A stretch of 64,000 nt of DNA from an uncultured Candidatus Saccharibacteria bacterium (lineage in GTDB: Bacteria > Patescibacteriota > Saccharimonadia > Saccharimonadales > CAZARM01), in the NCBI GenBank assembly GCA_964463635.1, contig CAYXCB010000001.1, positions 7,526 through 71,525 of the forward strand, given 5' to 3'. Under the pieces are notes generated by a model. That model was not told the origin of the DNA, did no database searches, and was given only the letters and a program-made list of their open reading frames with translations. Numbering within the stretch: position 1 is the first letter of the stretch; every line of letters starts with the position of its first letter. Shown one piece after another: positions 12,946 to 62,249 of the stretch. Both the position numbers and the translations under genes were made by a program.

Positions 12946-13356
12946 CTATAATCTGTTTTTAGCTTCTAATTCGTGGATGCGCTGGTGGTCCAGCCCGTAG
13001 TAGTGTGCGATTTCGTGCCAGAGGGTGTGTTTGATCTTACTTTTGAAATCTTCTAGATCGGCTGAAGCATAGAAAAGAGGCAGCTTGAACAGAGTAATCT
13101 TGTCAGGCAGGACCAAATTGTAGCTGGCGTTGCGCTTAGTCAGCGGAATCCCCTCGTACAAGCCAAATAATGTCTGGCTGCAATGCAGTTTAAGCTTTTG
13201 GCGCTGGGTTTCAGTCGGTTCGTCCTCGTAGGTGACTAAAACGTTGTTGAGCCGGGTAATATACTCTTCGGGCAACTCATCCATAGCAGCCGATATATAC
13301 TTGTCGAAGTCTTCGTCTGAGATACTTAACATGTTAAGTATTGTATCACATAGCAC
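12946..13356 (-). CDS. zincin-like metallopeptidase family protein (PF06262-like); true start may be the ATG at ~13332
   Basis: C-terminal HEIAHYYGLDH (HExxH...H) in a ~130-aa protein. The start region is overlapped by a 22-bp palindromic MarR-type box. Confidence 0.55.
   Translation of the reverse strand: MLCDTILNMLSISDEDFDKYISAAMDELPEEYITRLNNVLVTYEDEPTETQRQKLKLHCSQTLFGLYEGIPLTKRNASYNLVLPDKITLFKLPLFYASADLEDFKSKIKHTLWHEIAHYYGLDHQRIHELEAKNRL
13321..13343. promoter_or_regulatory. palindromic operator (MarR-box-like) GATACTTAACATGTTAAGTATTG overlapping the start of the peptidase gene
   Basis: Perfect 14-bp palindrome CTTAACATGTTAAG plus flanks; near-identical 22-nt site at 18375..18398 directly upstream of marR. 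Confidence 0.55.
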
Positions 13357-16075: not shown

Positions 16076-17260
16076 TTAGACTACAAAGGTCAGGGCGTGG
16101 CCAACTCGTCCAGCTCGGCCGGCTCGGCCGACACGGTGGATATAATCCTGATAGGTTTGCGGCTGAGAAAAGTTAATGACATGAGTAATGTCGACAATGT
16201 CGATGCCGCGGGCAGCCACATCGGTAGCAACCAGCACGCTGACTTCACTGTCCTTGAAGCGTTTCAGGGCTCGCTGACGCTGGCTTTGATTCTTGCCGCC
16301 GTGGATCGAATCGGCTTTGAAACCTCGGCTAATCAATTCGTTGCTTAGTTTTTCAACACCGCGCTGAGTTTCGTCAAAAACGATGGCTTTTTCGACTTCG
16401 CCCTTTAGCAATAGATCATGCAGTTTGTCCATCTTATCGAGAGGTGATAGGCAACGCACGATGTCTTGGTTGACCATATCGGTAGTTTCACCAGTTTTGA
16501 TCGACACAGTGACTGGGTCAGATGTAAAGTTTTGTATCAAATTGTTGATTTTGTGGTCGAGCGTGGCCGAGAAAAAGAACGATTGGCGCTTGGCAATTAG
16601 ATTGCTAAGTATTTTGGTCACGCTATCGACAAAGCCCATGTCAAGCATGCGGTCTACTTCGTCCAATACAACCGTATCAAATGTAGATAGGTTTAGCGTT
16701 CGGCGCTCCAGGTGATCTTGAATCCGGCCAGGCGTACCGATTACAATTCTAGGTCGTGATTTCAGGTCGGCCAGCTGGCGTCCCATCGAAGTACCGCCAA
16801 TGAGCAGGGCTCCGAATAGGCCGCTGCCTTTAGCCATCCAGCGGCATTCCTGCTCGATTTGCTGAGCTAGCTCGCGGGTTGGCGCGATAATCAAGGCCTT
16901 AGAGTGCGGGTTATTAATTAACTTGTTAAGTATGGGTATAGCAAAGGCAGCTGTCTTGCCGGTGCCGGTGTTAGCAATGCCAATTACATCCCGGCCTTCT
17001 AGGCCGAGTGGAATTGTCTGGTCCTGGACTGGCGTTGGGACTTCGTAGCCCTTGTGTATGATGTTGGTCTTCAGTAACTGATGGACATTGAAGTCTGCAA
17101 AAGTGTGCTTGGCAACGTAAACGTCCTCTGTCACGCCTGTGGCACGACGGACGAAACGGGTCGGGTCGATATACTCGCCCCGACGTTTAGGACCGGAGAC
17201 ATTGCGTCGCCGGTTATGATTGGACGACTTGTAAATCGTCCGGCTTTTATAATTCGGCAT
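16076..17260 (-). CDS. DEAD-box ATP-dependent RNA helicase
   Basis: Q-motif, Walker A AxTGTGKT, DEVD, SAT and HRVGRAGRAGR motifs. Confidence 0.9.
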   Translation of the reverse strand: MPNYKSRTIYKSSNHNRRRNVSGPKRRGEYIDPTRFVRRATGVTEDVYVAKHTFADFNVHQLLKTNIIHKGYEVPTPVQDQTIPLGLEGRDVIGIANTGTGKTAAFAIPILNKLINNPHSKALIIAPTRELAQQIEQECRWMAKGSGLFGALLIGGTSMGRQLADLKSRPRIVIGTPGRIQDHLERRTLNLSTFDTVVLDEVDRMLDMGFVDSVTKILSNLIAKRQSFFFSATLDHKINNLIQNFTSDPVTVSIKTGETTDMVNQDIVRCLSPLDKMDKLHDLLLKGEVEKAIVFDETQRGVEKLSNELISRGFKADSIHGGKNQSQRQRALKRFKDSEVSVLVATDVAARGIDIVDITHVINFSQPQTYQDYIHRVGRAGRAGRVGHALTFVV

Positions 17261-17886
17261 AAAAAAGAATCCTCTATATTTTTAACTTGTTACTTTGGTG
17301 CTTGATTGCTCAGATGAAGCCAAAGTGATAGTCAAAAACTCGGATTCATGGAAAGACAATACCTATACATTAGCATGATATCTGTCCTGAGTCAACGTTA
17401 TAACAAAAAAGCACCAGAAAATCTGATGCGTTTTTGGTGGAGCTGGTGGGTACTGCCCCCACGTCCGCTAGTTTAACTGGTTAGTCTATCCTACAGGTGT
17501 AGGTCATTTGAATACATCATGGGATAAAAATGACCAAAAAACCATGATGGTCGATCCTGATCTTAGTCCGACTACGGATCAATTGCCGAAAGCAATCAGA
17601 AAATATGTCACGCTGTATCGCTATCTGATGTCACAATAGGCGCGGCTTTAGAAATTAAGCTAAAGCTGGTGCGAACTGGCGACCGAAGAGAAGTGTTTTA
17701 CCACTCTCAAAGGCGCTAGCTACGCGATCAAGTAGTTTTGCAACTATTTGGGTTCGTCTATACGCTGACAAGCGACCTGCTGATCTAACCGTTAAAGTCC
17801 AACGTCGAGCTTAAAATTCAGCCCCGTATATGATTTATCACTTCTTACAGTGATCTGTACATTATACCACTTATGTCAATAAATTG

Positions 17887-18374: not shown

Positions 18375-18398
18375 TAATACTTAACGTGTTAAGTATTA
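18375..18398. promoter_or_regulatory. palindromic MarR-box-like operator TAATACTTAACGTGTTAAGTATTA upstream of marR
   Basis: 12-bp inverted-repeat arms; 33 nt upstream of the marR start; near-identical to the 13321..13343 site. Confidence 0.6.
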
Positions 18399-19227: not shown

Positions 19228-20012
19228 TAGATTCCAGCCGCATAGGTCACTATGTTTTCAAAAAGAATTTCCGCAGCATATCTAGCAGCCTCGGTTCGAT
19301 CCCGCTGAGGATGAAAAGCCTCGATGGATCGCTCGGGGTGTGGCATCATACCTAGAACTACACCACGTGGATCGCATATACCGGCTATGTCGAGCATTGC
19401 CCCATTGGGATTATCAGGGAAATTACCATCTGGAAGTGTCGCATGCCTAGTACTGTACTGAAATACCACCTGGCCATTCTTTTCTAAATCCAAAATTTCC
19501 ATCTCGGGTCCAAAGAACCTGCCTTCACCGTGCGCAATCTGCATAGGTATAGGTAGCTCGCTGAATTCTTCCGGCTGAGCAAAGCGACAGGCCGATTCAC
19601 CGACTGCTAGTTCAATCCAGCGACACTCAAAGCGCCCAATTTCGTTTTCGGCCAGCGTGACTTGTTGTTCGCCAATCGTTCCATAAGGTAATAGGCCAGT
19701 GCGAACAAGCACCTGGAATCCGTTGCAGACACCCAAGATAGGCTTTTCTTGATCTACAAATTCTTGCAGCTGATCTGAAAGGTAAGATGTAAGCTCATTA
19801 GCCAACACTTTACCGGAAGCAATGTCGTCACCATAAGAAAAACCCCCAGGAATTGCCAAAATACCGTAATCCGCGAGTCGACGCTCGCCACTTCTTAGCT
19901 GATTAATGTGGACAGTTTCTGGAAGGCCACCAGCCACCTCAAAGGCATGGCTCATTTCCATGTCACAATTGATACCGTCGGTCTTGAGTATACAAACTTC
20001 GGGACTAATCAT
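19227..20012 (-). CDS. purQ: phosphoribosylformylglycinamidine synthase glutaminase subunit PurQ
   Basis: Class-I glutamine amidotransferase with catalytic GVCNGFQVL. Confidence 0.85.
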   Translation of the reverse strand: MISPEVCILKTDGINCDMEMSHAFEVAGGLPETVHINQLRSGERRLADYGILAIPGGFSYGDDIASGKVLANELTSYLSDQLQEFVDQEKPILGVCNGFQVLVRTGLLPYGTIGEQQVTLAENEIGRFECRWIELAVGESACRFAQPEEFSELPIPMQIAHGEGRFFGPEMEILDLEKNGQVVFQYSTRHATLPDGNFPDNPNGAMLDIAGICDPRGVVLGMMPHPERSIEAFHPQRDRTEAARYAAEILFENIVTYAAGI

Positions 20013-22849
20013 GAATGAAATATTCCTTTCATAGGTGCCTGCCAGGCAGATTTCAGATCGTCAAGTTCAGTTTTGCACAGTTTATTCCAGGCACCTTTGC
20101 GAATTTCAAAACTAGTAGTACTGCTGGTACTGCCAATCTGTCGGTAAGGTACTCCCTCGAAAGCCAGATAGGCATCATTATGTCCATTGACTTCGACCAC
20201 AAAACATCCGGCAGTTTCATTAAACAGGAAAGTCTCCGAATCGGCGTGCTCAGGAATATGTATTGTTGCCCCGCTGTCACTGCCAAAGCACATTTCGGCT
20301 ACAGTTGTAGCAATTCCGCCTTCACTTACGTCGTGACAAGCTAGAATATCGCCTTTTTGAATCGCTTTGTAGATACGCCTTAATACCTCTGGCAGCACAA
20401 GCGTATTAATTTCTGGTACCTCACCACTTTGACCACCTGCTATATCGTAATACGTGCTGCCGCCCATATTGTCACTAGTACCGCCTACTAAATACAACAG
20501 TGTATCACCAGGCTTCTTGAGCTCTGTTGTCATTGTTTTTTCAACGTCCGGGATTCGGCCAAAAATTGACATAGTGTAAACCGGTGGGATTTTAATAATC
20601 TCGCCGTCTTTGCCGCGATAGGTGGAAGATAGGCTGTCTTTACCGGAAATGACGGGCAACTTCAGGAGGTGCATCATATCGACTGCAGCATCAACTGAAC
20701 GATCAAGCGATCCCATCGCCTCTTCATCGGGAAATGGCCAAATATAGTTACCGACAGCGGCAGCTTCATCAATATTGCCACCGGCAGAAACATAGTTTGC
20801 AGCCGCTTCTGCGATTGCCCAGACGGTGCCTTCGTAAGGATCTAATCGGTTCAAGATCGGGTTCATACCATGTGATTGCACCACGCCATAAGGCTTGCCT
20901 AGCATTGGCCGTATTACCAGAGCATCGTTGGGTCCTTCCTGATTAACGCCACCAAACGGGGAAACAACATTGCCGCCCTGCACTCCGTGATCATACTGGC
21001 GGACAATTGGCTCTTTGGAACACACATTTCCATGTGCTAGTACGGCCTTAAGCCGTTCTATCCATTCTCCCTCGCTCGTTGGCGCTTCAGGACGAACTTC
21101 CGAGATTTCCTCATGATCCCAGTGGGCGTACATGATTCTTTGCGGAAGTCCGCCGTCTAAAAACTCATAGTCCAGTTCAGCTACGTTTTGCTCGCCAAAA
21201 TTAACAGTTAGCGTATGACTGCCATCAAATTCTCCAAGTACGGTAGCTTCCACATTATATTTGCTGCAAACTATCATAAATTCTTCAATATTGTCTGGAG
21301 AGATCGCCGCAACCATGCGCTCTTGTGATTCGCTTAGCCAGATTTCCCAGGGTGCCAGGCCAGGATATTTTAGCGGCGCCTTGCTGATGTCTACTGTGAC
21401 GCCTATACTCTCACCAATTTCGCCTATGGCAGATGAAAAGCCAGCAGCACCACAGTCCGTCATAGCCCGAATGAAACCATGATCACGAGCCTCAAGCAAT
21501 GCATCAAACATGCGTTTTTCCTCGATCGCGTTGCCAATTTGGACCGCGCTGGAGTTCACGCTTGCTGTACGGTCGGTCATCTCACCTGACGAGAATGTTG
21601 CGCCGTGAATACCATCGCGTCCAGTGCGACCGCCAATAATCACAACTAAATCACCGACTAGGGGTTCGCCCTTTTGTGCCAGGACTTCCGGCATAATTCC
21701 GTAAGCGCCCACCTCGACAGTAGGCTTTGCCCGAAAATCCTCGTGATAATGCACTGAGCCATTCGGTGTGGGGATGCCCATACGATTACTATAATCGCGT
21801 ACGCCTTGGACTACGCGGCGCTGCAAGTAATCAGGATGCAAGGTTCCAAGCGGTAATAGTGATTCATCTAAGTCGGGCGGTGCGAAACAAAACATATCTG
21901 TCGAAATAATCGTTTTAGCACCTTGGCCAGTACCCATAACATCCCGGAAGACACCACCACTACCCGTCATAGCACCACCGTAAGGTTCAATGGCTGAAGG
22001 ACTATTATGGGTCTCGACCTTGCCACAGATGGCTTGGCCATCGTAAAAACGTATTACGCCGGAATTATCACCGAATGCTGAAATAACTAGGTCTTTAAAA
22101 TGTACTTTGGCGGCATTTTTAATGCGGTCAAATAAGGGTTCTTTTTCTACGCCATCAACCACAACTCTTGCATTGAAAGTTTTATGTCCACAATGTTCAC
22201 TCCATCTAGCAGCAATTATTTCCAGCTCGGCGTCAGTCGGATCACGGTCAAGTTTTCGGAAGTGCTTTTGGACTACGCTCATTTCTTCGCCGTTTAGAAA
22301 CAATTTATCTTTGGATAATTCCGTTAACTCCTTTTCGGAAGCTTCACGAATCGGCACAATATTGACTGGTCCGACCGACCCTTCAAAGATAAGAGAGCTG
22401 GGTTTCATGGTAATAATTTGTTCAACTGTCTCGTTAACTAATAACCGCCCGACTGCCGTATCAACTTGATCTGTTTCTACTTCGCCAAAAAACGCATATT
22501 CCCGGGATGCATCAACCGCAACGGGGTTTATCTCTAAATCTTGCGCAGCTTTCATAATAGACGCAGAAGCTGGGTTCATAACACCCGGCTTGTATGCAAC
22601 TTCAACTACGTGAGGCGTATCAAAACCGACGAGCTGATTTAAACTGTGTTGTTCGTTTACCGGATCCGTCAACAAGCTTTCGGCAAGCGTCTGGGCCTCT
22701 TCTTCGCTTATGCCCTCTATCCGATAAATTTTGGCTGTTTTTACTTCCTCGATATTATCCAAGCCTAGTGTGCGTTCGGCTTCTTGCCTAACATCTTGCC
22801 CTAAAGGATCCGCATCTCTTGGAATTACCCTTATTTCATGAATCGTCAC
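20009..22849 (-). CDS. purL: phosphoribosylformylglycinamidine synthase PurL with two N-terminal PurS-like domains fused
   Basis: 946 aa; PurM-like FGAM synthetase core; N-terminal ~160 aa contain two segments ending in PurS-like LLTDPVNE and LLVNETVEQI motifs. Confidence 0.8.
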   Translation of the reverse strand: MTIHEIRVIPRDADPLGQDVRQEAERTLGLDNIEEVKTAKIYRIEGISEEEAQTLAESLLTDPVNEQHSLNQLVGFDTPHVVEVAYKPGVMNPASASIMKAAQDLEINPVAVDASREYAFFGEVETDQVDTAVGRLLVNETVEQIITMKPSSLIFEGSVGPVNIVPIREASEKELTELSKDKLFLNGEEMSVVQKHFRKLDRDPTDAELEIIAARWSEHCGHKTFNARVVVDGVEKEPLFDRIKNAAKVHFKDLVISAFGDNSGVIRFYDGQAICGKVETHNSPSAIEPYGGAMTGSGGVFRDVMGTGQGAKTIISTDMFCFAPPDLDESLLPLGTLHPDYLQRRVVQGVRDYSNRMGIPTPNGSVHYHEDFRAKPTVEVGAYGIMPEVLAQKGEPLVGDLVVIIGGRTGRDGIHGATFSSGEMTDRTASVNSSAVQIGNAIEEKRMFDALLEARDHGFIRAMTDCGAAGFSSAIGEIGESIGVTVDISKAPLKYPGLAPWEIWLSESQERMVAAISPDNIEEFMIVCSKYNVEATVLGEFDGSHTLTVNFGEQNVAELDYEFLDGGLPQRIMYAHWDHEEISEVRPEAPTSEGEWIERLKAVLAHGNVCSKEPIVRQYDHGVQGGNVVSPFGGVNQEGPNDALVIRPMLGKPYGVVQSHGMNPILNRLDPYEGTVWAIAEAAANYVSAGGNIDEAAAVGNYIWPFPDEEAMGSLDRSVDAAVDMMHLLKLPVISGKDSLSSTYRGKDGEIIKIPPVYTMSIFGRIPDVEKTMTTELKKPGDTLLYLVGGTSDNMGGSTYYDIAGGQSGEVPEINTLVLPEVLRRIYKAIQKGDILACHDVSEGGIATTVAEMCFGSDSGATIHIPEHADSETFLFNETAGCFVVEVNGHNDAYLAFEGVPYRQIGSTSSTTSFEIRKGAWNKLCKTELDDLKSAWQAPMKGIFHS

Positions 22850-23525
22850 GATAAGCCTCTTGTTCTTTTAAAAACCTGTCTAGAACATAGGGCAGTGCGA
22901 TTTTCTCGACTATTTGAATGCGGTCAAATAGGTCTTGCGGTGTATCATCTGGAAAAACTTCAACAGGGTGCTCAGCTATCTTAGGCCCCCTGTCTACACC
23001 GGATGCCACTACATGCACGGTGTGCCTGGAAATGGCAAGCCCTAGTTCCAATACTCGCTCCGAGGTATGTAGGCCGTAGGTATCTTCGGTTTCTGGCAGT
23101 GGCCCAGGGTGTGTGTTGCTCATTCTAGCTAAATAGATAGAGCTAAAATGCGGCAGCCAGCCATACTCTTCAATAAGCTCGCCACGAACCATTTTCATAT
23201 AACCCATGAGGGCAACATGGGCAAATCCTTGGTTCGCAACCCTCTCACAAATTGCTGCTGACTCAGCAAGCGTCTGGCCACGTCCTATGTTACCGTCAGG
23301 ATGCGTACGACCACTAATTTCTGCTGTTTCAATATCTAGTTCATACTGCTTATTTAATCTTTGGACCCTGCCATATATACCGGCTCTTTCAGGAGGATTG
23401 TTGCATATCACCAACCCTACCTCTGCGCTTATTCGCCCGTCCTGAGTCGCATGAATGAATGCTTCAGCTGTTGAGCCGCTTCCTGAAGCTAAAATAGCAA
23501 TGCTAGGGGTGTGCTTCTTTATCAT
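22836..23525 (-). CDS. purN: phosphoribosylglycinamide formyltransferase PurN
   Basis: N-terminal AILASGSGS and formyltransferase core; adjacent to purL/purQ. Confidence 0.7.
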   Translation of the reverse strand: MIKKHTPSIAILASGSGSTAEAFIHATQDGRISAEVGLVICNNPPERAGIYGRVQRLNKQYELDIETAEISGRTHPDGNIGRGQTLAESAAICERVANQGFAHVALMGYMKMVRGELIEEYGWLPHFSSIYLARMSNTHPGPLPETEDTYGLHTSERVLELGLAISRHTVHVVASGVDRGPKIAEHPVEVFPDDTPQDLFDRIQIVEKIALPYVLDRFLKEQEAYRDDS

Positions 23526-23587
23526 ATTCCAAGATTATAGACATCTGTAAGCTAATCCCCAAGCACAAGCAAAATGGCTTAAGGGAA

Positions 23588-23635
23588 AAGAGCAGCCGGA
23601 GACCCCGATTCATTCGGGGCGCGGCTTTGGCGGGG
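23588..23635. repeat. partial copy (E3) of structured intergenic element: hairpin CCCCG-ATTCATT-CGGGG plus AGAGCAGCC motif
   Basis: Shares loop GATTCATTCG and flanking GAGCAGCCGGA with elements at 29216..29300 and 30684..30775; stem sequence different but complementary. Confidence 0.5.
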
Positions 23636-23663
23636 AAAACCGTAGATTTGTCTCAGTTACTAT

Positions 23664-24902
23664 CTAATACCAGTGGTTGACGTTCCAGAAGGCTTGGGCT
23701 TTGCAGGGGCTACCGTAGCGGTTAACCATATAGCCTATTCCCCAGCGGATCTGGACAGCTGGGTCTGATTCCCAACCGGGGCCCATTTTGCTGCCAGGCA
23801 AAGCCTGCGGGATGCCATAAGCGCCTGACGAACGGTTTCGGGCTAGGTGGTTCCATTTGGATTCGCGGTCAAAAATAGAATAAATACAGCTGAATTCTTT
23901 GGTCCAGCCCATGTCGGAGGCAATCTGTTTACCTAGCTCTACATTGGCTGATGGATTGCTATAAATCACCTTAGTGCCTTTTATAACGATTCTTTTAACA
24001 GGTTCGGCGGCAATAACTTCTTGGATTACCCGTCGGCTGGCTTCAACACCGTTGCGCAGTTCTAGTTCATAAGTTACGATTTTGCGGCCGTCGCTGCCAG
24101 CCTGCTGGACGCGCTGGGTCCCAGCTGGCAGCGCGGGGTCTTCCCGGGTTTCAACCGGTGCCGGGATTTTCTGGTCGTCAGTGGCAATCTGGGTACCAAC
24201 TCGAGTAACAAACACTTGGGTGTTTGGTGTCAGCACCGTGCTGGGCTCAGGCTGCAATGTGTCGCCTTCGTTCAGTTTGACATTCTTTTCAGCCAGTAAT
24301 TCGCCGACCGTTTCGGCATGGGTACGAACTTCAATAGGGGTGCCGTACAAGTTAAGGTTAGCTAGGGTCGCCCGGTCAATAACCACTTTTTCTGCCACTA
24401 TGCCATCGCGCAGCAGGTCTCGAGCGTCCATGCTCGTGGCGCCAGCGGTTTTCAGCCGGTCTTCTGGAAAGACTTGAACGCCTGCGGCCTCAACAATCGC
24501 TTCAGGCGTCGGCTGAGCTGTATATGTCACTGTTTTCTTGCTGCCGTCTTCTACTAGAACTGGCCGGGCGCGGTAAATAATTACCTGGAAATTGTCGGCT
24601 TCAATCGTCGTATCCAGCGCGGGATTAACGATGTCTTTTTCTCCTAAGCTAATATTGAGCCGCTGAAGCAAGTCGGCTACATTTTGAGCCCGAGTCGGGA
24701 CAATCTGCTGCTCACCATCAATACTGACTGAGACAACCATGGTATCGCTGGCGCCAATCGTCTGGCCATTAAAGCTAACGTAGCCAACCATGGACACAAA
24801 AAACAGTACCAGGAAAGTTAACACCGGTACGACAAACGGGTGGTTATGAAGCCTATGGAAACGACTTTTCCGGGTTTTGCCGGAAGGTTGTTTTTGACGC
24901 AT
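23664..24902 (-). CDS. G5/DUF348-domain cell-wall-associated protein with C-terminal transglycosylase-like domain (YabE/Rpf-like)
   Basis: N-terminal TM anchor, DUF348-like repeats, G5-like segment, C-terminal WNHLARNRSSGAYGIPQALPGSKM block resembling a lytic transglycosylase-like domain. Confidence 0.55.
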   Translation of the reverse strand: MRQKQPSGKTRKSRFHRLHNHPFVVPVLTFLVLFFVSMVGYVSFNGQTIGASDTMVVSVSIDGEQQIVPTRAQNVADLLQRLNISLGEKDIVNPALDTTIEADNFQVIIYRARPVLVEDGSKKTVTYTAQPTPEAIVEAAGVQVFPEDRLKTAGATSMDARDLLRDGIVAEKVVIDRATLANLNLYGTPIEVRTHAETVGELLAEKNVKLNEGDTLQPEPSTVLTPNTQVFVTRVGTQIATDDQKIPAPVETREDPALPAGTQRVQQAGSDGRKIVTYELELRNGVEASRRVIQEVIAAEPVKRIVIKGTKVIYSNPSANVELGKQIASDMGWTKEFSCIYSIFDRESKWNHLARNRSSGAYGIPQALPGSKMGPGWESDPAVQIRWGIGYMVNRYGSPCKAQAFWNVNHWY

Positions 24903-24982
24903 AATTCAAAATGGCTAATCCGGAGACCCTCTTAGTATTCATCGGTACTTCCCGTGATAGCCAACATATATTCTACCAATAA

Positions 24983-25504
24983 TCAGGTCTTGAACCAAAC
25001 TGCTATGATACTGCGAACATTAGGGCTGACAGCCTTATTGGTAAGTAAATCTTGCCACTTGAACCATTTAAGATCAGCCAGCTCGTACTTTTGGCGCAGA
25101 ACAGTAGGCTTACTCAGCAGCTCGAGAGCAAAAGCCGTGTAGCTAAAGGTGAGCCCGGCCTCTGGAATCGAGCGCTGCTCATGAATAAGTTTCAGTTGCT
25201 CGGGTTTAATTTTCATGCCAGTTTCTTCGTAAAGTTCGCGCAGCGCGCCTTGAATAGCCGTTTCGCGCCGGTGCCTGCCCCCGCCAGGCAGTTCCCAGCG
25301 GCCTAAGCCCAGCCAGCCTTTGCTAACTAGCACTTCCCCGCCGCAAATAATCAAAATCCTGGTCCGCTGGCTTCTGTAAAGGTAAACAAACAACGCCGGA
25401 TAGCTCAACCAGAATGCTAACCTGCCTAAGAGTGACCAAAGCCGTTTCATCCCATTAGACTCCAAAAGACCTTTTTTAATCTGATTATCGACTGAAGCAA
25501 GCAT
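24983..25504 (-). CDS. Nudix hydrolase with N-terminal membrane anchor
   Basis: Nudix box GGGRHRRETAIQGALRELYEETGM; hydrophobic N-terminal segment. Confidence 0.6.
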   Translation of the reverse strand: MLASVDNQIKKGLLESNGMKRLWSLLGRLAFWLSYPALFVYLYRSQRTRILIICGGEVLVSKGWLGLGRWELPGGGRHRRETAIQGALRELYEETGMKIKPEQLKLIHEQRSIPEAGLTFSYTAFALELLSKPTVLRQKYELADLKWFKWQDLLTNKAVSPNVRSIIAVWFKT

Positions 25505-25556
25505 GGGCGTTCAGTCGTGAACCAATCGCTGGAAGTTAAGTGGAGTCTAACGGGAT

Positions 25557-27707
25557 TCATTCTACTTTCTCCAGCGGCGCAAAGGCGGCGTTAAGCTTCT
25601 TAGTGCCTTTGCCTTTGAAATAAATTGTGACGTTTTCGCCCTCTATTTCTAGGATAGTCCCGACCCCGAACAGTTTATGACGGACTTGGTCGCCTTCTTC
25701 GATTTCCGGCATGTAATGGACTTCCTGGCTGGTTTCGTCGCGGCTAAACTCCGGCTTAGGCCACATGCTGCCGAAGCCTTGGTTGTCAGTCTGGACCTGG
25801 CCGTCAATTTCACTTAAAAACCTTGACGGCGGATTGTGCTGGACGCCGCCATAAAGCATTCGGGAACTGGCATGAATCATGTAGAGTTCGGATTTAGCCC
25901 TGGTCATACCGACGTAACAAAGTCGGCGCTCCTCTTCCATCTGGTTTTGGTCATAGAGCGCCCGTGAATGAGGGAAAATAGTTTCTTCTAGGCCCGTCAT
26001 AAAGACGACTGGAAATTCCAAGCCTTTAGCGGCATGCAGTGTCATCAGTGTCACGGCATTGCCGTTCATATCAGCCTGGTCGATGTCGCTGATTAGCGCC
26101 ACTTCCTCTAAAAAGCCAGCTAGTCCCAGTTCTTGGTATTCCTGCGCTACGCTTATCAGTTCCTTGACGTTTTCTTGCCTTGACTCGCCTTGCAGGCCGC
26201 CGTCATCCAGATAATTCAAGTAATCCAACCGGCGGATCAGCGAATCAATTAGGCCGGTCAAGGCCGCGTCTTGCAGCACGTTTCGCATAGCTGCCAGCAA
26301 TTCTCCTAGTTCAAATAAGCCTTTTTTGGCTTTGGGCGTCAGGCCTGGATGTTCGTTCACTGATCCTAGGGCTTGCTCAAGGTTTAGGTTGTTGTTTCGC
26401 TGCCAAGTATAAAAAGCCTCCATGGATCTAGGTCCGATGCCTCTAGTCGGCACATTGACGATCCGCTCGAAGCTGACACGGTCTTGTGGCTGATAAATTA
26501 GCCTGAGATAGGCCATGATGTCCTTGATTTCCTTGCGGTCATAAAAGCGCACACCGCCGACAACCCGATACGGGATACCGTAGCGGATAAAGCCTTCTTC
26601 GATTGCCCGGCTCTGGGCATTAGTCCGATACAACACCGCGAAATCAGAAAAATTACGGAACTTTATGTCTACAGCATTGCGAATCCGACGAATAATCGCC
26701 TCGGATTCACTCCGTTCGCTATTAACCGGCAGAATCTGGATCGGCTGGCCGCCGGTGTCCTCAGTCCAGAGTTTTTTGTCGGAACGCTGTTCGTTCTTGG
26801 TAATGACGGCATGGGCAGCGTCTAAAATCGCCTTGGTGCTGCGGTAGTTTTGTTCGAGTTTGATGATGGTGGTTTTGGGATAGTCGCGTTCGAAGTTCAA
26901 AATATTCCTAAAATCAGCACCTCTCCAACTGTAAATTGATTGCCAGTCGTCGCCAACTACTGCAACATTATATTTACTACTTGTCAATAGTTTGATCAGT
27001 TTATATTGGGCGGCATTGGTGTCCTGATACTCGTCTATCATAATATAGCCAAACTGCTTAACCCATTTTTTACGAATCTCAGGCTGCGTCTCAAATAGCT
27101 GCACCGTTCGGCCAATCAAATCGTCAAAGTCGAGCCCGCCAGCTTCTTTCAGCAGCCGCTCATAGATAGGGAAAACTTGAGCGGCCGCGTTATGAACCGG
27201 CCCGCTGCCCATACCGACGTAATCAGCCGGTGTTACTAGTTCATTTTTTGCGCTGCTAATCAGCGAAGCGATCGAGCGCGGCGGAAAGCTCTTTTCGTCC
27301 AGGCTTAATTGCTTGCTAGCTTGTTTGACGGCCGTGAGTCGGTCGCTTTCGTCAAATATAACGAAGTTAGGCGGAATACCGACATATTCTCCGTCCTGCC
27401 GCAGCAGCCGGACGCAGATCGAGTGGAACGTACCCATAAACGGCATAAAACTGCGGTTGTCAGCTTTCTCGCCTAACAACTTGGCCACGCGTTCGCGCAT
27501 CTCGCGGGCGGCTTTGTTGGTAAAGGTTACGGCGAGAATGTTGTATGGCGTAGCCCGTTTGGTGGCTATCAAGTAAGCGATTCGGTGAGTTAAGGTTTTG
27601 GTCTTGCCAGAACCGGCGCCGGCTAGAATCAACAGCGGTCCTTCGGTAGTTTCTACCGCTCGGCGTTGCTCATCATTTAACCCAGTCAAAAGCTCTGAAG
27701 ACATCAA
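25557..27707 (-). CDS. pcrA: ATP-dependent DNA helicase PcrA/UvrD
   Basis: Walker A AGAGSGKT, UvrD-family motifs, 716 aa. Confidence 0.85.
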   Translation of the reverse strand: MMSSELLTGLNDEQRRAVETTEGPLLILAGAGSGKTKTLTHRIAYLIATKRATPYNILAVTFTNKAAREMRERVAKLLGEKADNRSFMPFMGTFHSICVRLLRQDGEYVGIPPNFVIFDESDRLTAVKQASKQLSLDEKSFPPRSIASLISSAKNELVTPADYVGMGSGPVHNAAAQVFPIYERLLKEAGGLDFDDLIGRTVQLFETQPEIRKKWVKQFGYIMIDEYQDTNAAQYKLIKLLTSSKYNVAVVGDDWQSIYSWRGADFRNILNFERDYPKTTIIKLEQNYRSTKAILDAAHAVITKNEQRSDKKLWTEDTGGQPIQILPVNSERSESEAIIRRIRNAVDIKFRNFSDFAVLYRTNAQSRAIEEGFIRYGIPYRVVGGVRFYDRKEIKDIMAYLRLIYQPQDRVSFERIVNVPTRGIGPRSMEAFYTWQRNNNLNLEQALGSVNEHPGLTPKAKKGLFELGELLAAMRNVLQDAALTGLIDSLIRRLDYLNYLDDGGLQGESRQENVKELISVAQEYQELGLAGFLEEVALISDIDQADMNGNAVTLMTLHAAKGLEFPVVFMTGLEETIFPHSRALYDQNQMEEERRLCYVGMTRAKSELYMIHASSRMLYGGVQHNPPSRFLSEIDGQVQTDNQGFGSMWPKPEFSRDETSQEVHYMPEIEEGDQVRHKLFGVGTILEIEGENVTIYFKGKGTKKLNAAFAPLEKVE

Positions 27708-27729
27708 GCTATTTTAGCACCTTGAGGTG

Positions 27730-28356
27730 TCAAAGTAGGTCGTCTAGCAAACCGGCGTCGTAAGCAAATGCCGCGGCACCCACAGCGGCTGCTAGCAAAA
27801 TGAGAACTATAATCAGGGCGGTTCGGTGATGACGTTTGTGACTAGCAACACCAAGCGGCACGTAATATTTGCGCTCAGCAACTAATTGGTCAACCTTAGC
27901 GCGCATGGCTTCGATTTCTTTTTGGTCGTCATCGGTTTTTTTCTTGTCCTTGGCGGCATCGGCTACAGCTTCAACGGCAGCGCCCGAGTCGCCATCAAGC
28001 GGCACCGAGTCATCATCTGGCTTGGGTTCGCTGGGAGTTGCTGACACTGGTTCTGTAACCTCAAGTTCAGGCTTTTCAGCCGGTTTCGGTTCTTCTGCCC
28101 TGGCAACTTCAATTGGGACTGAATCAGCACCATCCTTAACTTCTACTTTTGTGCTGGTTGGTTCATTGATAACTTTTTCATGAGCTACGGTAGATAGTTT
28201 AACTTCTTCAGGTTTAGCTTCTTTTTGAACCATCGGATCCTGCATCATGGGGCCATGGGTAACAATAATCGGCCGCGATGTCGCGCTTGGCGCTGATTTG
28301 CCGGGCTGGGTCACGTCGTCCATCGGTTTCTTGCTGTTTTTTTCCGACTCAGCCAT
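27730..28356 (-). CDS. hypothetical acidic low-complexity protein with C-terminal TM anchor
   Basis: Pro/Glu/Lys-rich repeats and C-terminal hydrophobic segment LIIVLILLAAAVGAAAFA. Confidence 0.4.
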   Translation of the reverse strand: MAESEKNSKKPMDDVTQPGKSAPSATSRPIIVTHGPMMQDPMVQKEAKPEEVKLSTVAHEKVINEPTSTKVEVKDGADSVPIEVARAEEPKPAEKPELEVTEPVSATPSEPKPDDDSVPLDGDSGAAVEAVADAAKDKKKTDDDQKEIEAMRAKVDQLVAERKYYVPLGVASHKRHHRTALIIVLILLAAAVGAAAFAYDAGLLDDLL

Positions 28357-29152
28357 TGTCTTTACCTATTTCTGATAAATAACGGTCGGCGCTGGCTACC
28401 ATTCCAGAAAATTCGTGATAATTCAAGCTAGCGCCGCCGACGAGCAGGCCGTCGACGCCATCAATTTCCAGTAATCCTCTGGTTGAGGAAGCATTGGCAC
28501 TGCCGCCATACAAAATCCGCAGGGCCGCGCCGGCTTTTTTACCATATAAATGAGTGACGTTGTTGCGGATGGCGGCTACGGCTTTAGCGATCTCGGTAGC
28601 TTTGGGTGCTTCGTGATGCAGGTAGTCACTACCACTGCTCAGAGCCCAAACCGGTTCATAAGCTATAACGATATGCTGGATTTCTTTTGACGTGACATTA
28701 GATAGGGCTGATGTAACTTGGTCGTGCAGCACCTGCATGGTTTCGCCCTGAAGTTTTTCGTGTTTGGTCTCGCCGACACAGAGAATCGGGCTGATTTCGT
28801 TACGAATGGCGGCCGCTACTTTGTCCCGAACGGTGTCTAAATCTTCACCAAATTTATAGCGGCGATCAGAGTGACCAACTATAACGTAGTGGACTAGATC
28901 GCGCAGCATGGTAAAGCTGACCTCGCCGGTGTACGGCCCGTCGTCTTTATGATATGCGTTTTGAGCCGCTAGTCGGAACTTGCGCCGGTCTAGCTGGACG
29001 CTCAATGGCTGTAAAACCAGCATGCTTGGGGCTAGGACTACTTCTATGTCGCGGTGGATTTTGATACGCTCATGCAAACGGTGCAGCAAGATACTAGACT
29101 GAGAAGTATTCAGGTGCATTTTCCAATTGCCGACGATTAATGTTCTGCGCAT
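28349..29152 (-). CDS. tpiA: triosephosphate isomerase
   Basis: IVGNWKMH N-terminal motif, catalytic AYEPVWA, GGS(A)N. Confidence 0.9.
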   Translation of the reverse strand: MRRTLIVGNWKMHLNTSQSSILLHRLHERIKIHRDIEVVLAPSMLVLQPLSVQLDRRKFRLAAQNAYHKDDGPYTGEVSFTMLRDLVHYVIVGHSDRRYKFGEDLDTVRDKVAAAIRNEISPILCVGETKHEKLQGETMQVLHDQVTSALSNVTSKEIQHIVIAYEPVWALSSGSDYLHHEAPKATEIAKAVAAIRNNVTHLYGKKAGAALRILYGGSANASSTRGLLEIDGVDGLLVGGASLNYHEFSGMVASADRYLSEIGKDNG

Positions 29153-29215
29153 ATTTTTCTATTTCAACTAGCTTAATAATACTTATGCTTACACTGTTTG
29201 TAAATCTTGGATTCA

Positions 29216-29300
29216 GGGGAGAGCAGCCCGATGAAGCGATTCATTCGCTTCCCGGCGCGATGAGAGGGGATATTCCCCTCTCATGAGGCGAAGCCGTTGC
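29216..29300. repeat. structured intergenic element copy E1 (hairpin GAAGCG-ATTCATT-CGCTTC plus perfect palindrome ATGAGAGGGGA-TAT-TCCCCTCTCAT)
   Basis: Begins 10 nt after the pgk stop in mRNA sense; homologous to 30684..30775 with compensatory changes. Confidence 0.7.
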
Positions 29301-29309
29301 TTACTTGTA

Positions 29310-30599
29310 TCATTTTTTATCTAATAGACTCTCGACTCCTGGCAGGGTTTTGCCGCTCATCAGCTCTAAGCTCGCGCCGCCGCCAGTCGACACATGGTTA
29401 AAATGTCCCAGCAGTTTGCGTTCTTCTATATAACCGACCGTGTCGCCGCCGCCAACCACGGTAAATGGCCGATGGCCAAACTCACCTAGCATAGCGTCGA
29501 CAATCAGGTCTGTACCATGGGCAAACGGCCCGATCGGGCCCTGCAGGCCGTCGACTTCAGTCACGCCCATGGCGCCGTTCCAGATAACGGTGCCGGCCAT
29601 CTGCATACCGCCAGCAATAAACGAGCCGGAAAACGGCCCGATGTCCAGGATCATTTCGTCGTCACTTAGTTTTCCCGTCTCGCGCGGCGGCCGTTTAGGA
29701 TAATTTTCAATGTCGGCGATGATGTGGGCGTCCCAATCGACAATCCGGGTTTTAGCAGTCTTGTCCATCCGGTTCGCCACTACCCCGTCCTGAGGCAAGT
29801 AGAATATAAAATGCTGTTTTTTGACTTTGGCCCTGGCCCGATCGATTATGTCCTTAGCCAGCGGCACATCATCGGGATCAGTCAGGCTTTTGCCGACATC
29901 AAGCCCCTCAGCTAGCAAAAAAGTATTGGCCATGGCGCCGCCGACGACTACAAAATCGGCGATATCTATAAATCGGTTCAAAATGTCGATTTTATCAGCG
30001 ATTTTCGCGCCGCCGATAATGGCCATCAGCGGCCTGATGGGCTTTTCCATGACGCTCGTAATAGTGTCGACTTCTCGCTCTAGCAGCAATCCAGCCACGC
30101 TGGGTAAGAAGTGCGTCACGCCTTCGGTTGAGGCATGAGCCCGGTGGACTACGCCAAAGCCGTCTTGGACAAAAACCTCGCCTAAACTGGCCAGCTTTTC
30201 GGCGAATGCCCTGTCATTCGCCTCTTCCTCGTCGTGATAGCGCAAATTTTCGAGTAGTAATACTTGGCCAGGTTTCAGGGTTTTGGCGGCAGCCTGGGCG
30301 GATTCGCCAACACAATCAGTCGCGAACTTAACATCTAGGTCAAGCAGTTCGCCTAGCCTTTTGGCAATCGGTTTGAGACTCACTTTGGTATCTTTTGGCC
30401 CGTCGGGTCGACCTAGATGCGAGCACACTACAACCGCGCAGCCTTGCTCGAGTAAGTATTTAACTGTTGGCAAAGACTGCTGGATACGATAATCATCGGC
30501 AATCTTACCGTCTTCCAGCGGAACATTATAATCGGCCCGCAGTAAAACCCGTTTACCCTTCAGGTCGTAGTCGCGAATTGTTTGTTTGGTAAACGCCAA
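29310..30599 (-). CDS. pgk: phosphoglycerate kinase
   Basis: N-terminal RADYNVP motif and the PGK two-domain architecture. Confidence 0.9.
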   Translation of the reverse strand: MAFTKQTIRDYDLKGKRVLLRADYNVPLEDGKIADDYRIQQSLPTVKYLLEQGCAVVVCSHLGRPDGPKDTKVSLKPIAKRLGELLDLDVKFATDCVGESAQAAAKTLKPGQVLLLENLRYHDEEEANDRAFAEKLASLGEVFVQDGFGVVHRAHASTEGVTHFLPSVAGLLLEREVDTITSVMEKPIRPLMAIIGGAKIADKIDILNRFIDIADFVVVGGAMANTFLLAEGLDVGKSLTDPDDVPLAKDIIDRARAKVKKQHFIFYLPQDGVVANRMDKTAKTRIVDWDAHIIADIENYPKRPPRETGKLSDDEMILDIGPFSGSFIAGGMQMAGTVIWNGAMGVTEVDGLQGPIGPFAHGTDLIVDAMLGEFGHRPFTVVGGGDTVGYIEERKLLGHFNHVSTGGGASLELMSGKTLPGVESLLDKK

Positions 30600-30683
30600 A
30601 TTGCCACCCTATAGTTTTCAGATATTACTAACTACATTTTAGATTGTGCTAACGCTTTTAGCAAAGTTTGGATTAATGTCTTA

Positions 30684-30775
30684 GGGGAGAGTAGCCGGAC
30701 CAAGTGATTCATTCGCTTGTCCGCGCGGCCTGAGAGGGGATGCTCCCCTCTCAGCAGGCGAAGCCGCTGCTACTC
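30684..30775. repeat. structured intergenic element copy E2 (hairpin CAAGTG-ATTCATT-CGCTTG, palindrome CTGAGAGGGGA-TGC-TCCCCTCTCAG, outer stem GAGTAGC/GCTACTC)
   Basis: Immediately follows (overlaps) the pyk stop codon in mRNA sense; covariation relative to E1 preserves all stems. Confidence 0.7.
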
Positions 30776-32215
30776 TAACACTCGGACTTTAATTGTGTCA
30801 GTTGTGCCAACGACGCCTGGATATTTGCCAGTGGCCGTGACAATCATGTCGCCCGTCTTTAGTACCTTATTCTTTTGCAGCCAATTAGTCAGTTTAGTGG
30901 CAGCGAGTTTGCTGTCCGGGCGAACATAGCTTTTAGTTCCATAAACTACCGCCAACTGTTGGGCCACACGAGCTTCTGATGTAACAGCGATAATCGGTCG
31001 TTTAGGCCTGAGAGCGGCAATCTGCAATGCTGTCGCGCCAGATTTAGTTTCGGCGACGATAGCTTTGGCCTGAACATCATCGGCAAGACTAATGATGGCT
31101 TCGCAAATTGCCACCTGGCGGGTAGGCAGGGGCTGCTCAGGATAAATAACATTCAGAGGCGTATTATTTTGGGTGTACAGAATTACCCGCTTCATAGTTT
31201 CAACGGCTTCAATCGGATATTTGCCATTGGCGGTTTCATCGCTCAACATAACGCAATCGGCGCCAATCAAAACAGCCGTAGCGACGTCAGAAATTTCAGC
31301 TCTGGTTGGTTCGGGCACCTCTGTCATGCTGAATAACATCTGGGTAGCAATAATAGTCGGCTTGGCATACTTGATTCCAAGTCCAACCAGCTGGCGTTGG
31401 ACTATGGGAACAGATTCAGCTGGCGCTTCAACAGCTAGGTCGCCGCGAGCCACCATGATAACATCTGACTCCTGAACAATGGCTTCAATATTATCGACGG
31501 CCGCTTTAGTCTCGAACTTAACGATTATCTTGGCTTTAACCCCCAGATTCATCATCTGTTTGCGCATGTTTCGGATATCGGCCGCTGTCTGCACGAAACT
31601 CTGGGCCACATAGTCAATATCTTGGGTTGAACCAAAAGCCAGGTCTTTCTTGTCTTTTTTAGTGATAGTATCGCCAGCAAAGTCCGTATCCGGCAAATTT
31701 ATGCCTTTGCGCTTGATTAAGATACCTTCGTTTTCGGCTCTAGCATGTACTACGCCATCGGCGACACTAGTGATTATTGTTTTAACTTTCCCGTCGTATA
31801 AATACAGCCGATCCCCGCGTTTTACTTTGTTGCTGACGTCAAACTGGGTCGGCAGGTTGCCAGAACGCTCATAATCAGCTTTATACTGAAAAGTCAGATT
31901 CTGACCGGGCTGCACAGGTATAACCCCTTCGAAATCACCTAAGCGAAGTTTTGGGCCCTGCAAATCTTGAATAATAGCAACTGGTTTGCCGCAGTCTTTA
32001 GCAGCCTGGCGAATCCATTTGATGCGCTGGCCATGTTCTTCGTGGTCGCCATGGCTAAAATTAAGCCTCAGTCCATTGGCTCCGGCTTTAATGAGCGCGA
32101 GTACTTTTTCATAACTATCAGTGGCCGGCCCCACCGTGGCGATGATTTTAGTCCTTTTAAATTTATCAACAGGTACATTTGGCACCTTGTTAGTAGTATC
32201 CATAAAATTACGCAC
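30770..32215 (-). CDS. pyk: pyruvate kinase
   Basis: KIIATVGP, NFSHG motifs, 481 aa. Confidence 0.9.
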   Translation of the reverse strand: MRNFMDTTNKVPNVPVDKFKRTKIIATVGPATDSYEKVLALIKAGANGLRLNFSHGDHEEHGQRIKWIRQAAKDCGKPVAIIQDLQGPKLRLGDFEGVIPVQPGQNLTFQYKADYERSGNLPTQFDVSNKVKRGDRLYLYDGKVKTIITSVADGVVHARAENEGILIKRKGINLPDTDFAGDTITKKDKKDLAFGSTQDIDYVAQSFVQTAADIRNMRKQMMNLGVKAKIIVKFETKAAVDNIEAIVQESDVIMVARGDLAVEAPAESVPIVQRQLVGLGIKYAKPTIIATQMLFSMTEVPEPTRAEISDVATAVLIGADCVMLSDETANGKYPIEAVETMKRVILYTQNNTPLNVIYPEQPLPTRQVAICEAIISLADDVQAKAIVAETKSGATALQIAALRPKRPIIAVTSEARVAQQLAVVYGTKSYVRPDSKLAATKLTNWLQKNKVLKTGDMIVTATGKYPGVVGTTDTIKVRVLE

Positions 32216-62093: not shown

Positions 62094-62202
62094 GGTTCAA
62101 ATCCTGGGAACCCCGACCCAAAGATAATTTTCTGCTGAAAATTTCTTTCGGCATGCCTCACGCCGTCGCGTTCCGGCCTTGCAAAAGTCCACAGGACTTT
62201 CT

Positions 62203-62249
62203 CACCCTGCTTAAGAGGCAGGTGCTCTAACCAGCTGAGCTACTGGCCC
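62203..62249 (-). pseudogene. truncated tRNA-Lys(CUU)-like 5' half (acceptor 5' strand, D-arm, anticodon arm only)
   Basis: GGGCCAGTAGCTCAGCTGGTTAGAGCACCTGCCTCTTAAGCAGGGTG: ~85% identical to the intact tRNA-Lys 5' half; no T-arm or 3' acceptor follows. Confidence 0.5.

Follow-up and report, generated by a model that had tools for sequence, protein, structure and literature searches.

We analysed a stretch of 64,000 nucleotides (nt), below called the window, from an uncultured Candidatus Saccharibacteria bacterium (GenBank assembly GCA_964463635.1, contig CAYXCB010000001.1, positions 7,526 to 71,525 of the forward strand). It carries a minus-strand array of genes in the order pyk, pgk, tpiA, a hypothetical gene, pcrA, a Nudix gene, a G5/DUF348 gene, purN and purL; the pgk product is 100% identical to a protein at NCBI, and the next-best matches are from Saccharibacteria and Saccharimonadales. 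Three copies of a small hairpin-forming element, E1, E2 and E3, lie beside stop codons of this array, E2 at that of pyk (30770-30772), E1 at that of pgk (29310-29312, which comes after the last hairpin of E1) and E3, at a distance of 8 nt, at that of the G5 gene (23664-23666). All three are on the plus strand, that is, antisense to the pyk, pgk, tpiA and G5 genes (Table 1). Our results suggest that these copies are probably old insertions of a family of small non-autonomous mobile elements of Saccharibacteria and related Patescibacteria, and that the elements appear to have enlarged pyk-pgk-tpiA spacers that are tight in relatives.

On its own strand the element consists of a 5' extension, a purine tract, CAGCC, a first hairpin (P1), GCGCG, a second hairpin (P2), and either a short tail or a GNA mini-hairpin (P3), altogether about 75-100 nt. 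An initial annotation, made from the letters alone, had proposed a repeated structured element of this kind after pyk and pgk, and direct reading, folding, and scans for palindromes and motifs found E1 and E2 at that place and with that architecture. In E1, P1 rests on the base GCCCG/CGG(C)GC, in which one C is bulged and an A.C mismatch occurs. Its variable stem, GAAGCGA/TCGCTTC around the loop TTCAT, corresponds to AAGTGA/TCGCTT in E2, and the base of the P2 palindrome has A-T in one copy and C-G in the other, in line with the compensatory changes that had been claimed. Directly 5' of the G-run stands AAATCTTGGATT in E1 and AAGTTTGGATT in E2, and the 5' extension of E1 probably belongs to the inserted unit; A29215, the base preceding the E1 tract, mirrors the loop-closing A of E1 P2. 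After P3, the two copies also have G(Y)TGCT in common. The palindrome GAGAGGGGA-NNN-TCCCCTCTC occurs in the window only in E1 and E2, with 0 occurrences expected, and the multi-branch folds of the two copies beat those of shuffled sequences (z = -3.2 and -4.9, respectively).

The third copy had been taken for a half-copy. Our analysis revealed a full-length, degenerate member of an A-rich sister subclass with its own tract and P2, which resembles the copy at L032:703-776 and the majority class of metagenome copies; the relative L002 has a similar copy after its G5 gene, and both are decayed. The proximity of the copies to minus-strand stop codons held for all three, at 0-16 nt. The motif GATTCATTCG was found three times in the 64 kb, only in E1, E2 and E3 and always on the plus strand, and its supposed invariance as a loop is true within this genome only. 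P1 loops vary family-wide (ATTTATT, GCTTTGC, TCACGC and GTATTCC were seen), which speaks against the protein-binding invariant loop that had been offered as a function. Covariance models built from relatives scored E1 at 77-88 bits and E2 at 61-77 bits, and found nothing else significant in the window besides these two and E3. Exactly three copies were returned when the broader model, R2, was run on the window unfiltered (E1 77 bits, E2 61 bits, E3 34.5 bits, the last with E = 4e-8).

Table 1. Positions of the three element copies, their parts, and neighbouring genes and candidate sites in the window.
Feature	Position	Strand	Basis
E1, full copy	29212-29301	+	covariance models, fold, direct reading
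E1 5' extension AAATCTTGGATTC, common to E2	29203..29215	+	direct reading
E1 purine tract GGGGAGAG, mirror image of P2 5' arm GAGAGGGG	29216..29223	+	tract-P2 covariation, 144 elements
E1 hairpin P1	29226..29258	+	fold, consensus, covariation
E1 hairpin P2 (ATGAGAGGGGA-TAT-TCCCCTCTCAT)	29260..29284	+	fold, palindrome scan, covariance model
E1 mini-hairpin P3 (GGC-GAA-GCC) and GTTGCT	29287..29301	+	direct reading, fold
E2, full copy	30680-30771	+	covariance models, fold, direct reading
E2 5' extension AAGTTTGGATTAATGTCTTA, common to E1	30663..30683	+	direct reading, R2 model
E2 purine tract GGGGAGAG	30684..30691	+	direct reading
E2 hairpin P1 (GCCGGAC-C-AAGTGA-TTCAT-TCGCTT-GTCCGCGC), with plus-strand U.G wobble	30694..30726	+	fold, covariance model
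E2 hairpin P2 (CTGAGAGGGGA-TGC-TCCCCTCTCAG)	30730..30754	+	palindrome scan, covariance model
E2 mini-hairpin P3 (GGCGAAGCC) and GCTGCT, overlapping the pyk stop codon	30757..30771	+	direct reading
E3, degenerate full-length copy, A-rich sister subclass	23581-23656	+	R2 match
E3 tract GGGAAAAGAG	23583-23592	+	R2 match
E3 hairpin P1	23595-23624	+	R2 match; then decayed junction
E3 hairpin P2 GGGGAAAACC..ATTTGTCTC	23632-23655	+	R2 match
pyk (pyruvate kinase), upstream neighbour of E2 in gene sense	30770..32215	-	
pgk (phosphoglycerate kinase), between E2 and E1	29310..30599	-	
tpiA (triose-phosphate isomerase), downstream of E1 in gene sense	28349..29152	-	
G5/DUF348 gene	23664-24902	-	
sigma-70-like site TTTACA-17-TATTAT, between E1 and the tpiA start	29176..29204	-	consensus match only
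weaker sigma-70-like analogue, between E2 and the pgk start	30636-30664	-	consensus match only

The element is not confined to this genome, and well over 100 further copies were found elsewhere. A first pattern, GGGGAGAGYAGCCSGA-N(12-40)-SGCGCG, scanned over one genome per species, gave 117 loci, of which 39 held true elements, about 42 in number. These loci were mostly titled Saccharibacteria, Saccharimonadales or Patescibacteria, with one labelled Parcubacteria and one Limnocylindria. P2 was absent from the pattern, yet it proved nearly invariant in the true matches, and P1 varied by compensatory changes; the remaining matches, among them those in Streptomyces, Gemmatimonas and Microbacterium, which lacked P2, were set aside as coding-sequence coincidences in high-GC genomes. 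A covariance model built from these elements, R1, recovered divergent further copies and exposed the sister subclass that includes E3. A second pattern, AGAGYAGCCSGA-N(18-26)-SGCGCGWYGAGA, in which the purine run and upper P2 were unconstrained, gave 120 loci with 125 elements on metagenome contigs. Among these, the tract and arm of the window type (GGGGAGAG/GAGAGGGG) are the minority, and the majority follows GG(G)-A(n)-GAG ... GAG-A(n+1)-CC(C)-loop-GG(G)-U(n-1)-G-UCUC. The two-subclass covariance model R2, again unfiltered, added about 13 copies to the pattern-found ones in 624 kb of metagenome loci, from which we derive a density of about one copy per 20-50 kb. In all, the pattern scans and the two models yielded about 145 elements, nearly all on contigs labelled Saccharibacteria or Patescibacteria. 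The Rfam scan that had been suggested matched no family: Rfam 15 gave nothing at the window elements at the gathering threshold, nothing in 23400-31000 at E <= 10, and nothing in eight loci with the majority subclass at E <= 1. No copy was found in viral contigs, so a phage origin was set aside, and no account of the element was found in the searchable literature. The family is apparently undescribed.

Its structure is conserved by covariation. Family-wide, the base of P1 is GCC-S-G / C-S-G-(C)-GC with a covarying S:S pair and a bulged C, an A.C 1x1 mismatch is kept in 78 of 119 sequences, and above the base stands a variable stem of 6-9 bp with a non-conserved loop. The two basal pairs of P2 also covary (A-U, U-A, C-G), and P2 position 5 of the A-rich subclasses has either a conserved A.G mismatch or a G-C pair. 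The tail after P2 is often AUUAC, with TTAC following P2 in many A-rich copies. The sequence GGCGAAGCC, which the initial annotation had counted as part of the architecture, is indeed the P3 mini-hairpin of E1 and E2; in the family as a whole P3 is optional, and between about a quarter and a third of the copies have it. In an alignment of 35 sequences, 93% of cells were paired, against 78% in shuffles, and double changes were found in 124 cells, whereas shuffles gave 44 and slid controls no more than 32, which supports selection on the structure. P1 contains few G.U pairs whichever strand is read (13 against 23 of about 800 in its interior), so that complementarity is kept on both DNA strands; G.U and A.C counts were uninformative as to the functional strand. 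The conserved A.C mismatch of the element strand would be a G.U pair on the opposite strand.

In order to judge whether the elements were inserted, we compared the locus with relatives. In L001, L003 and L005 no element is present: the pyk-pgk spacers measure 19-59 nt and the pgk-tpiA spacers 27-35 nt, whereas those of the window reach 170 and 157 nt; L001 is the closest relative (84% pgk identity to the window, against 76% for L002). L002 has an element in the pgk-tpiA spacer at another point, inside tpiA at about codon 14. Both of its flanks carry a segment of about 49 nt that contains the ribosome-binding region and start codon and is single-copy in the empty-site genomes. In L002 the site is filled and its target duplicated, and the insertion represents an independent event in the pgk-tpiA spacer. 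There, the functional tpiA start codon (GTG) uses a GGTGGAGG Shine-Dalgarno sequence in the 14 nt that separate the element from the duplicated target (L002 3299-3325), and the insertion apparently supplied or re-created this ribosome-binding site.

We then aligned the 80 nt left of each element with the 80 nt right of it. Among 140 real elements, 35 (25%) had flanking direct repeats scoring above 10 and 23 above 20, while the corresponding numbers for 731 pseudo-sites in the same loci were 7 (1%) and 2. The strong direct repeats were 29-68 nt long, the median overall being 38 nt, and L091 has a near-perfect repeat of 68 nt. In L036, L107, L238, L022 and L030, the last 16 or so codons and the stop codon of a CobO-like gene flank the element left and right. 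The left boundary is variable, the repeat there stopping 0-35 nt ahead of the tract. The right boundary is tight, at about 8-9 nt past P2 or just past P3: the repeat there begins 3-10 nt past P2, or 12-24 nt past P2 in copies with P3; as it begins after P3, the mini-hairpin belongs to the inserted unit. Such a duplication would leave the struck gene whole, and this would explain the apparent abutment of copies on stop or start codons. The places of insertion were gene termini, intergenic spacers and variable loops of 23S rRNA. Duplications were found in 19 of 43 copies of the window subclass, in 16 of 67 other A-rich copies and in none of 30 copies linked to tRNA genes. The direct-repeat-flanked copies lay in the sense of the gene in 22 cases and antisense in 5; for all copies near protein genes, sense to antisense was about 2:1. 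Taken together, filled and empty sites and flanking target duplications, by which a mobile element is generally recognized, were both found for the family. Among the options of the initial annotation, a small MITE (a miniature transposable element with inverted repeats) fits these empty sites and the duplications in many members best.

A number of observations weigh against mobility. The window copies themselves have no significant flanking repeats (the best is that of E2, p about 0.1), so their insertion is read from the comparison with relatives only, and of the two marks of a mobile element they bear the empty sites alone. No transposase, reverse transcriptase or other enzyme was linked to the family. 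Terminal inverted repeats are lacking, and duplications of 29-68 nt are far outside the 2-14 bp usual for DDE transposons. The positions after groEL, the CobO-like gene and the G5 gene are common to divergent genomes, and AGAGCAGCC, GCGCG, and the A.C and A.G mismatches are conserved unusually strictly for a selfish repeat. Finally, the repeats at the CobO-like gene (L036 4720-4905 and L107 7255-7440, and also L238, L022 and L030) resemble each other more closely inside one genome than from one genome to the next, which would need gene conversion or repeated insertion at the same site.

To these has to be added the linkage to tRNA genes, which a plain selfish repeat does not account for. Of 99 A-rich copies, 31 had a tRNA gene on the same strand starting 5-19 nt past P2, with a mode of 8-9 nt, and only 2 had one on the opposite strand; 18 different anticodons were represented, and no tRNA-linked copy was present among the 45 of the window subclass. 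With this near-fixed spacing and no duplications, the tRNA-linked copies look resident and functional rather than selfish. Extended -10 boxes (TGCTAYAAT) were found 11-90 nt upstream of them, which makes the element part of the pre-tRNA leader. Copies also occur within 23S rRNA genes, at the helix-45 intervening sequence (IVS) site and in other variable loops, in both orientations, with up to four copies in and directly upstream of a single 23S gene; some stop about 10-14 nt short of the 5' end of the 23S. Examples are L131 69-3628, L198 1-2668, L155 3078-6922, L216 8255-11601 and L208 1-2643, which have one to several copies in loops or within 14 nt of the 5' end, two of them antisense. The 23S gene of L155 is about 900 nt longer than the model.

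These positions are what would be expected if the element were a functional RNA module of the host that punctuates mRNAs, pre-tRNA leaders and rRNA precursors, its dispersal being secondary. Coaxial P1 and P2, possibly with a triple helix between tract and P2, would then serve as an RNase III-type site, as an exonuclease barrier, or as both, and would uncouple the stabilities of the joined RNAs. Besides the tRNA leaders and the 23S sites, the copies shortly past stop codons in either orientation, the strict conservation extending to mismatches, the groEL and CobO-like positions kept across genomes, and the co-evolution of tract and P2 agree with such a role. It is nevertheless hard to reconcile with the mixed orientation to protein genes, with rRNA insertions pointing both ways, with the absence of elements from the same operon in the closest relative, and with the flanking duplications, which show many copies to be recent insertions. 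Nor is there a U-tract past the hairpins, and hence the module is not an intrinsic terminator: neither P1 nor P2 of E1 and E2 is followed by a T-run on either strand, and a terminator scan listed neither copy, and in E3 only a minus-strand site of 5 pairs and a 3-nt loop in P1 (23608-23596). As for the REP-like mRNA stabiliser or processing site of the initial annotation, hairpins would arise in the transcript whichever way a copy points. We consider an RNA module as the primary identity of the element rather unlikely. Host function is, on the other hand, compatible with mobility, and for some copies, especially the tRNA- and rRNA-linked ones, processing, exonuclease blocking or a leader role would not exclude it.

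Our analysis further revealed that the purine tract covaries with P2 of its own element as a mirror image, which again is not accounted for by a plain selfish repeat. We compared, in 144 elements, the A-run of the tract, read backwards from CAGCC, with that of the P2 5' arm, read forwards. The lengths were 1 and 1 in 44 elements, 2 and 3 in 26, 3 and 4 in 5, 4 and 5 in 41, and 5 and 6 in 17, so that the rule holds in 133 of 144; six more (4 and 1) conform if a G is allowed at P2 position 5, and five are true exceptions. When the tract is aligned with the P2 pairs, the combinations are A over A-U (459), G over G-C (447) and U over A-U (2), in addition to A over the A.G mismatch (98) and G over the last A-U pair at the junction (92), other combinations being rare. 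Subclasses with differently matched tract and P2 occur together in one genome: the window has two copies with n=1 and one with n=4, and similar mixtures were seen in L032, L054, L113, L114, L167 and L190. Because each copy is internally matched, the match must be intramolecular and not to a shared trans factor.

Such a mirror repeat fits an antiparallel purine-motif triple helix with G.G-C, A.A-U and U.A-U triples, and the topology agrees, since the tract exits the P1/P2 junction and would lie antiparallel along the purine arm of P2. On the evidence of these patterns, the covariation looks triplex-like. To our knowledge, mirror covariation of this kind has not been reported for bacterial repeats, and the antiparallel purine motif, well known for DNA, has not been established in natural RNA. 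The purine runs are nearly self-symmetric, however, which makes the tract a quasi-direct mimic of the P2 5' arm as well (GGGAAAAG versus GAGAAAAA), and both can pair with UUUGUCUC. Just two variants distinguish between the mirror and an alternative helix, and both favour the mirror: in L152 the tract changed from G to U, the arm from G to A and the partner from C to U, and in L233 a U stands over an A-U pair, both in agreement with the base-triple prediction.

The alternative helix would be the basis of a riboswitch-like switch, in which the tract competes with the P2 5' arm for the 3' arm and thereby controls a start codon or read-through. This would account for the n+1 rule of the A-runs through a G.U pair, and in L032, L123, L034 and L022 a Shine-Dalgarno sequence and ATG lie within P2 or directly beside it. 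Against it, L152 and L233 vary as a triple contact predicts, the genes downstream are heterogeneous (TlyA-like, MsrA, RecX, SmpB, ATP synthase, PilM, RimK and tRNAs), one third of the copies are antisense to flanking genes, the alternative helix of the window subclass has two A.C mismatches in eight positions, and Rfam has no match, so that a switch seems very improbable. A riboswitch or cis-regulatory leader in general was rejected on the same grounds of orientation and neighbours, as only the tRNA-linked subset is strict in orientation.

The mirror relation may also be read at the level of DNA, where mirror-repeat covariation is the classical signature of an intramolecular triplex; on the opposite strand, the tract and P2 would form a canonical pyrimidine-motif triplex. 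The element would then be H-DNA, a cruciform, or a binding site of the REP/RAYT or recombinase type that acts on supercoiling, replication or recombination. In the U/T-containing tracts of L152 and L233, T faces A-T pairs, which matches the purine motif of DNA, Watson-Crick complementarity of P1 is kept on both strands, and GNA mini-hairpins of the GCGAAGC type are especially stable as DNA. A spacer of about 40 nt between the mirror halves is, however, long for H-DNA, and no associated protein is known. The strand bias at tRNAs (31:2) and among direct-repeat copies (22:5) points to a strand-specific process, and replication direction alone does not explain orientation, the copies being antisense to groEL and pgk and sense to tRNAs, with only a weak GC skew in the window. 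A DNA-level role is in our view clearly unlikely.

We therefore return to insertion of a small non-autonomous element as the favoured reading, and propose that it would spread via an intermediate made of a folded single strand, for the sake of which selection would preserve the hairpins and the contact of tract and P2, the long duplication preserving the struck gene. The window copies would be transcribed as the reverse complement within the pyk-pgk-tpiA and G5 transcripts and would form stable intercistronic hairpins just past the stop codons, with an effect on the mRNA that would be incidental or secondarily useful. As a more speculative extension, to which we give little credence, the element may be a tRNA-leader-derived, retroposon-like unit, an analogue of short interspersed nuclear elements, and contain a natural purine-motif triplex. 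RNase P would cut 8-9 nt after P2 and so free resident copies from pre-tRNA leaders; the freed strand would adopt the two-hairpin fold, place its 5' tract in the P2 groove as a triple helix with its ends together, and enter new sites by copying, where a stagger of tens of bases would give the long duplications. The only direct hint is that the 3' boundary of dispersed copies (P2 plus about 8-9 nt) equals the modal distance to tRNA position +1. The 5' boundary, variable like transcription starts, the lack of duplications at tRNA-linked copies and the strand bias of the dispersed direct-repeat copies also fit.

The enlarged spacers of the window contain candidate promoters. The sigma-70-like site between E1 and the tpiA start has the top sigma-70 score of the region (10/12), and from such consensus matches the once-tight pyk-pgk-tpiA operon may have internal promoters now. 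Further observations concern the neighbouring genes. The purL open reading frame (20009-22849, minus strand) encodes 946 aa whose N-terminal 70 or so residues match PurS, so that the window PurL appears to be a PurS-PurL fusion, and the purine-synthesis genes purL and purN are both on this Saccharibacteria contig. The PcrA/UvrD helicase of L001 (14186-17410) has 1074 aa with Hint/intein-splicing domains, against 716 aa in the window orthologue, and thus apparently has an intein. A 20-bp palindrome, ATACTTAAC-N-GTTAAGTAT, is present in perfect or near-perfect form at 13322-13341, 16914-16933 and 18377-18396, three copies within 5 kb against 0.01 expected. They lie in or beside short intergenic spacers around the transfer-messenger RNA (tmRNA) region and may be operator-like sites to which a dimeric regulator binds. 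The tmRNA gene itself (17435-17825, minus strand) scores 50.9 bits in Rfam against a gathering score of 47 and is missed by ARAGORN; it is evidently divergent. Beside the tRNA-Lys(CUU) gene at 61996-62072 lies, at about 62110-62249 on the minus strand, a second tRNA-Lys(CUU)-like 5' half, GGGCCAGTAGCTCAGCTGGTTAGAGCACCTGCCTCTTAAGCAGGGTG, 89% identical to the adjoining gene, with about 100 nt of unrelated sequence where the T-arm is expected. Neither ARAGORN nor Rfam detected it, and it may be an interrupted tRNA or a pseudo-tRNA.

Several known identities were tried for the element, and most were rejected. A tRNA or tRNA-Sec-like gene, with TCA in the 7-nt P1 loop A-TTCAT-T, was not supported by ARAGORN or Rfam, which report only tRNA-Glu and tRNA-Lys as tRNAs in the window, nor by the loop, which is not conserved. 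A classical DDE-type MITE would have terminal inverted repeats, and here the 5' end (GGGGAGAG or GGGAAAAG) agrees with the reverse-complemented 3' end (GAGAGGGG or GAGACAAA) in just 4-5 of 8 positions, the two ends being mirror images and not inversions; it would also have a short fixed duplication, in contrast to the long and variable ones observed. Palindromes are shared with REP and REPIN-RAYT systems, although a classical REP fits poorly with the low density, the composite unit of two or three hairpins and the long target duplications; the RAYT gene was not searched for. A palindrome-associated element derived from IS200/IS605 would make no target duplications, whereas these are present here, and the TTAC after P2 is on the wrong side for an IS608-type target. 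An integron attC site was dismissed for the lack of a GTTRRRY/RYYYAAC core in the consensus and for flanks of housekeeping genes in conserved synteny. A sigma-70 promoter in P2 (WTGAGA...CATTAC) would have a spacing from 16 to more than 20 nt depending on the subclass, and the real extended -10 boxes are further upstream; no conserved motif was found at a fixed distance upstream of the elements.

The genomes of Saccharibacteria and other Patescibacteria are tiny and densely packed, and hardly anything is known of the non-coding or selfish DNA in them. About one element per 20-50 kb is enough to reshape operons. The element splits pyk-pgk-tpiA in the window, and at other loci it occupies tRNA leaders and expands 23S rRNA, and it should accordingly be included in annotation pipelines and RNA-family libraries. 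The model enables quick tagging of Saccharibacteria contigs in metagenomes, and presence or absence of the element is usable as a strain-tracking marker. Importantly, duplications of 29-68 nt point to an insertion mechanism that is not yet understood, and if the tract-P2 covariation reflects a triple helix, the family would be a natural system for the study of purine-motif triplexes.

Among known systems, H-DNA mirror repeats and purine-motif triplexes resemble the element in that here, too, a purine tract mirrors the purine arm of an adjacent duplex. The tRNA-linked copies moreover end 8-9 nt before the RNase P cleavage site, much as the MALAT1 triple helix precedes mascRNA. Elements for nuclear expression differ in having U.A-U triples with a 3' A-rich tail, and the triplex is here proposed from a sequence pattern that an alternative helix could also produce. 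Like MITEs and REP-type repeats (REP/BIME, ERIC, Correia, RUP/BOX), the element is short, non-coding, hairpin-forming and multi-copy, lies between genes of compact operons in either orientation, is co-transcribed, and is patchy among relatives. Unlike them, it has neither terminal inverted repeats nor a short fixed duplication, and its density is much lower than that of REPs. It is moreover a composite of tract, P1, P2 and optional P3, conserved in sequence across many diverged contigs with strong covariation, and one of its subclasses is tied to tRNA leaders.

The only bacterial precedent that we found for long and variable target duplications is IS1549/IS1634 of the IS1634 family, with direct repeats of 8-514 bp for which no model was proposed (PMC2266710). 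Those are autonomous DDE elements of 1.5-2 kb with a transposase and terminal repeats, in contrast to a unit of 75-100 nt with no open reading frame and unlike ends. No insertion sequence of the IS1634 type was noticed near the copies, although no systematic search was made. Similar distributions were observed for the double-hairpin or repetitive hairpin-forming elements of fungal and sponge organelles, which occupy intergenic and rRNA variable regions of mitochondrial genomes, stay in transcripts, and are suspected to be mobile with no known function (PMC2800124). They share two adjacent hairpins and this placement with our family, and differ in their unrelated sequence, in the lack of flanking duplications reported for Allomyces (PMC2800124), and in that no matching of a purine tract to a hairpin is described for them. 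In the 23S rRNA of the candidate phyla radiation, short non-intron insertions at known IVS sites have been reported, with Saccharibacteria largely without rRNA insertions and no description of this motif (PMC11270868). The present family does have members in Saccharibacteria 23S genes, both at the helix-45 IVS site and in further variable loops; in contrast to such insertions, the element also lives outside rRNA, upstream of tRNAs and, as in the window copies, which are unrelated to rRNA, between protein genes.

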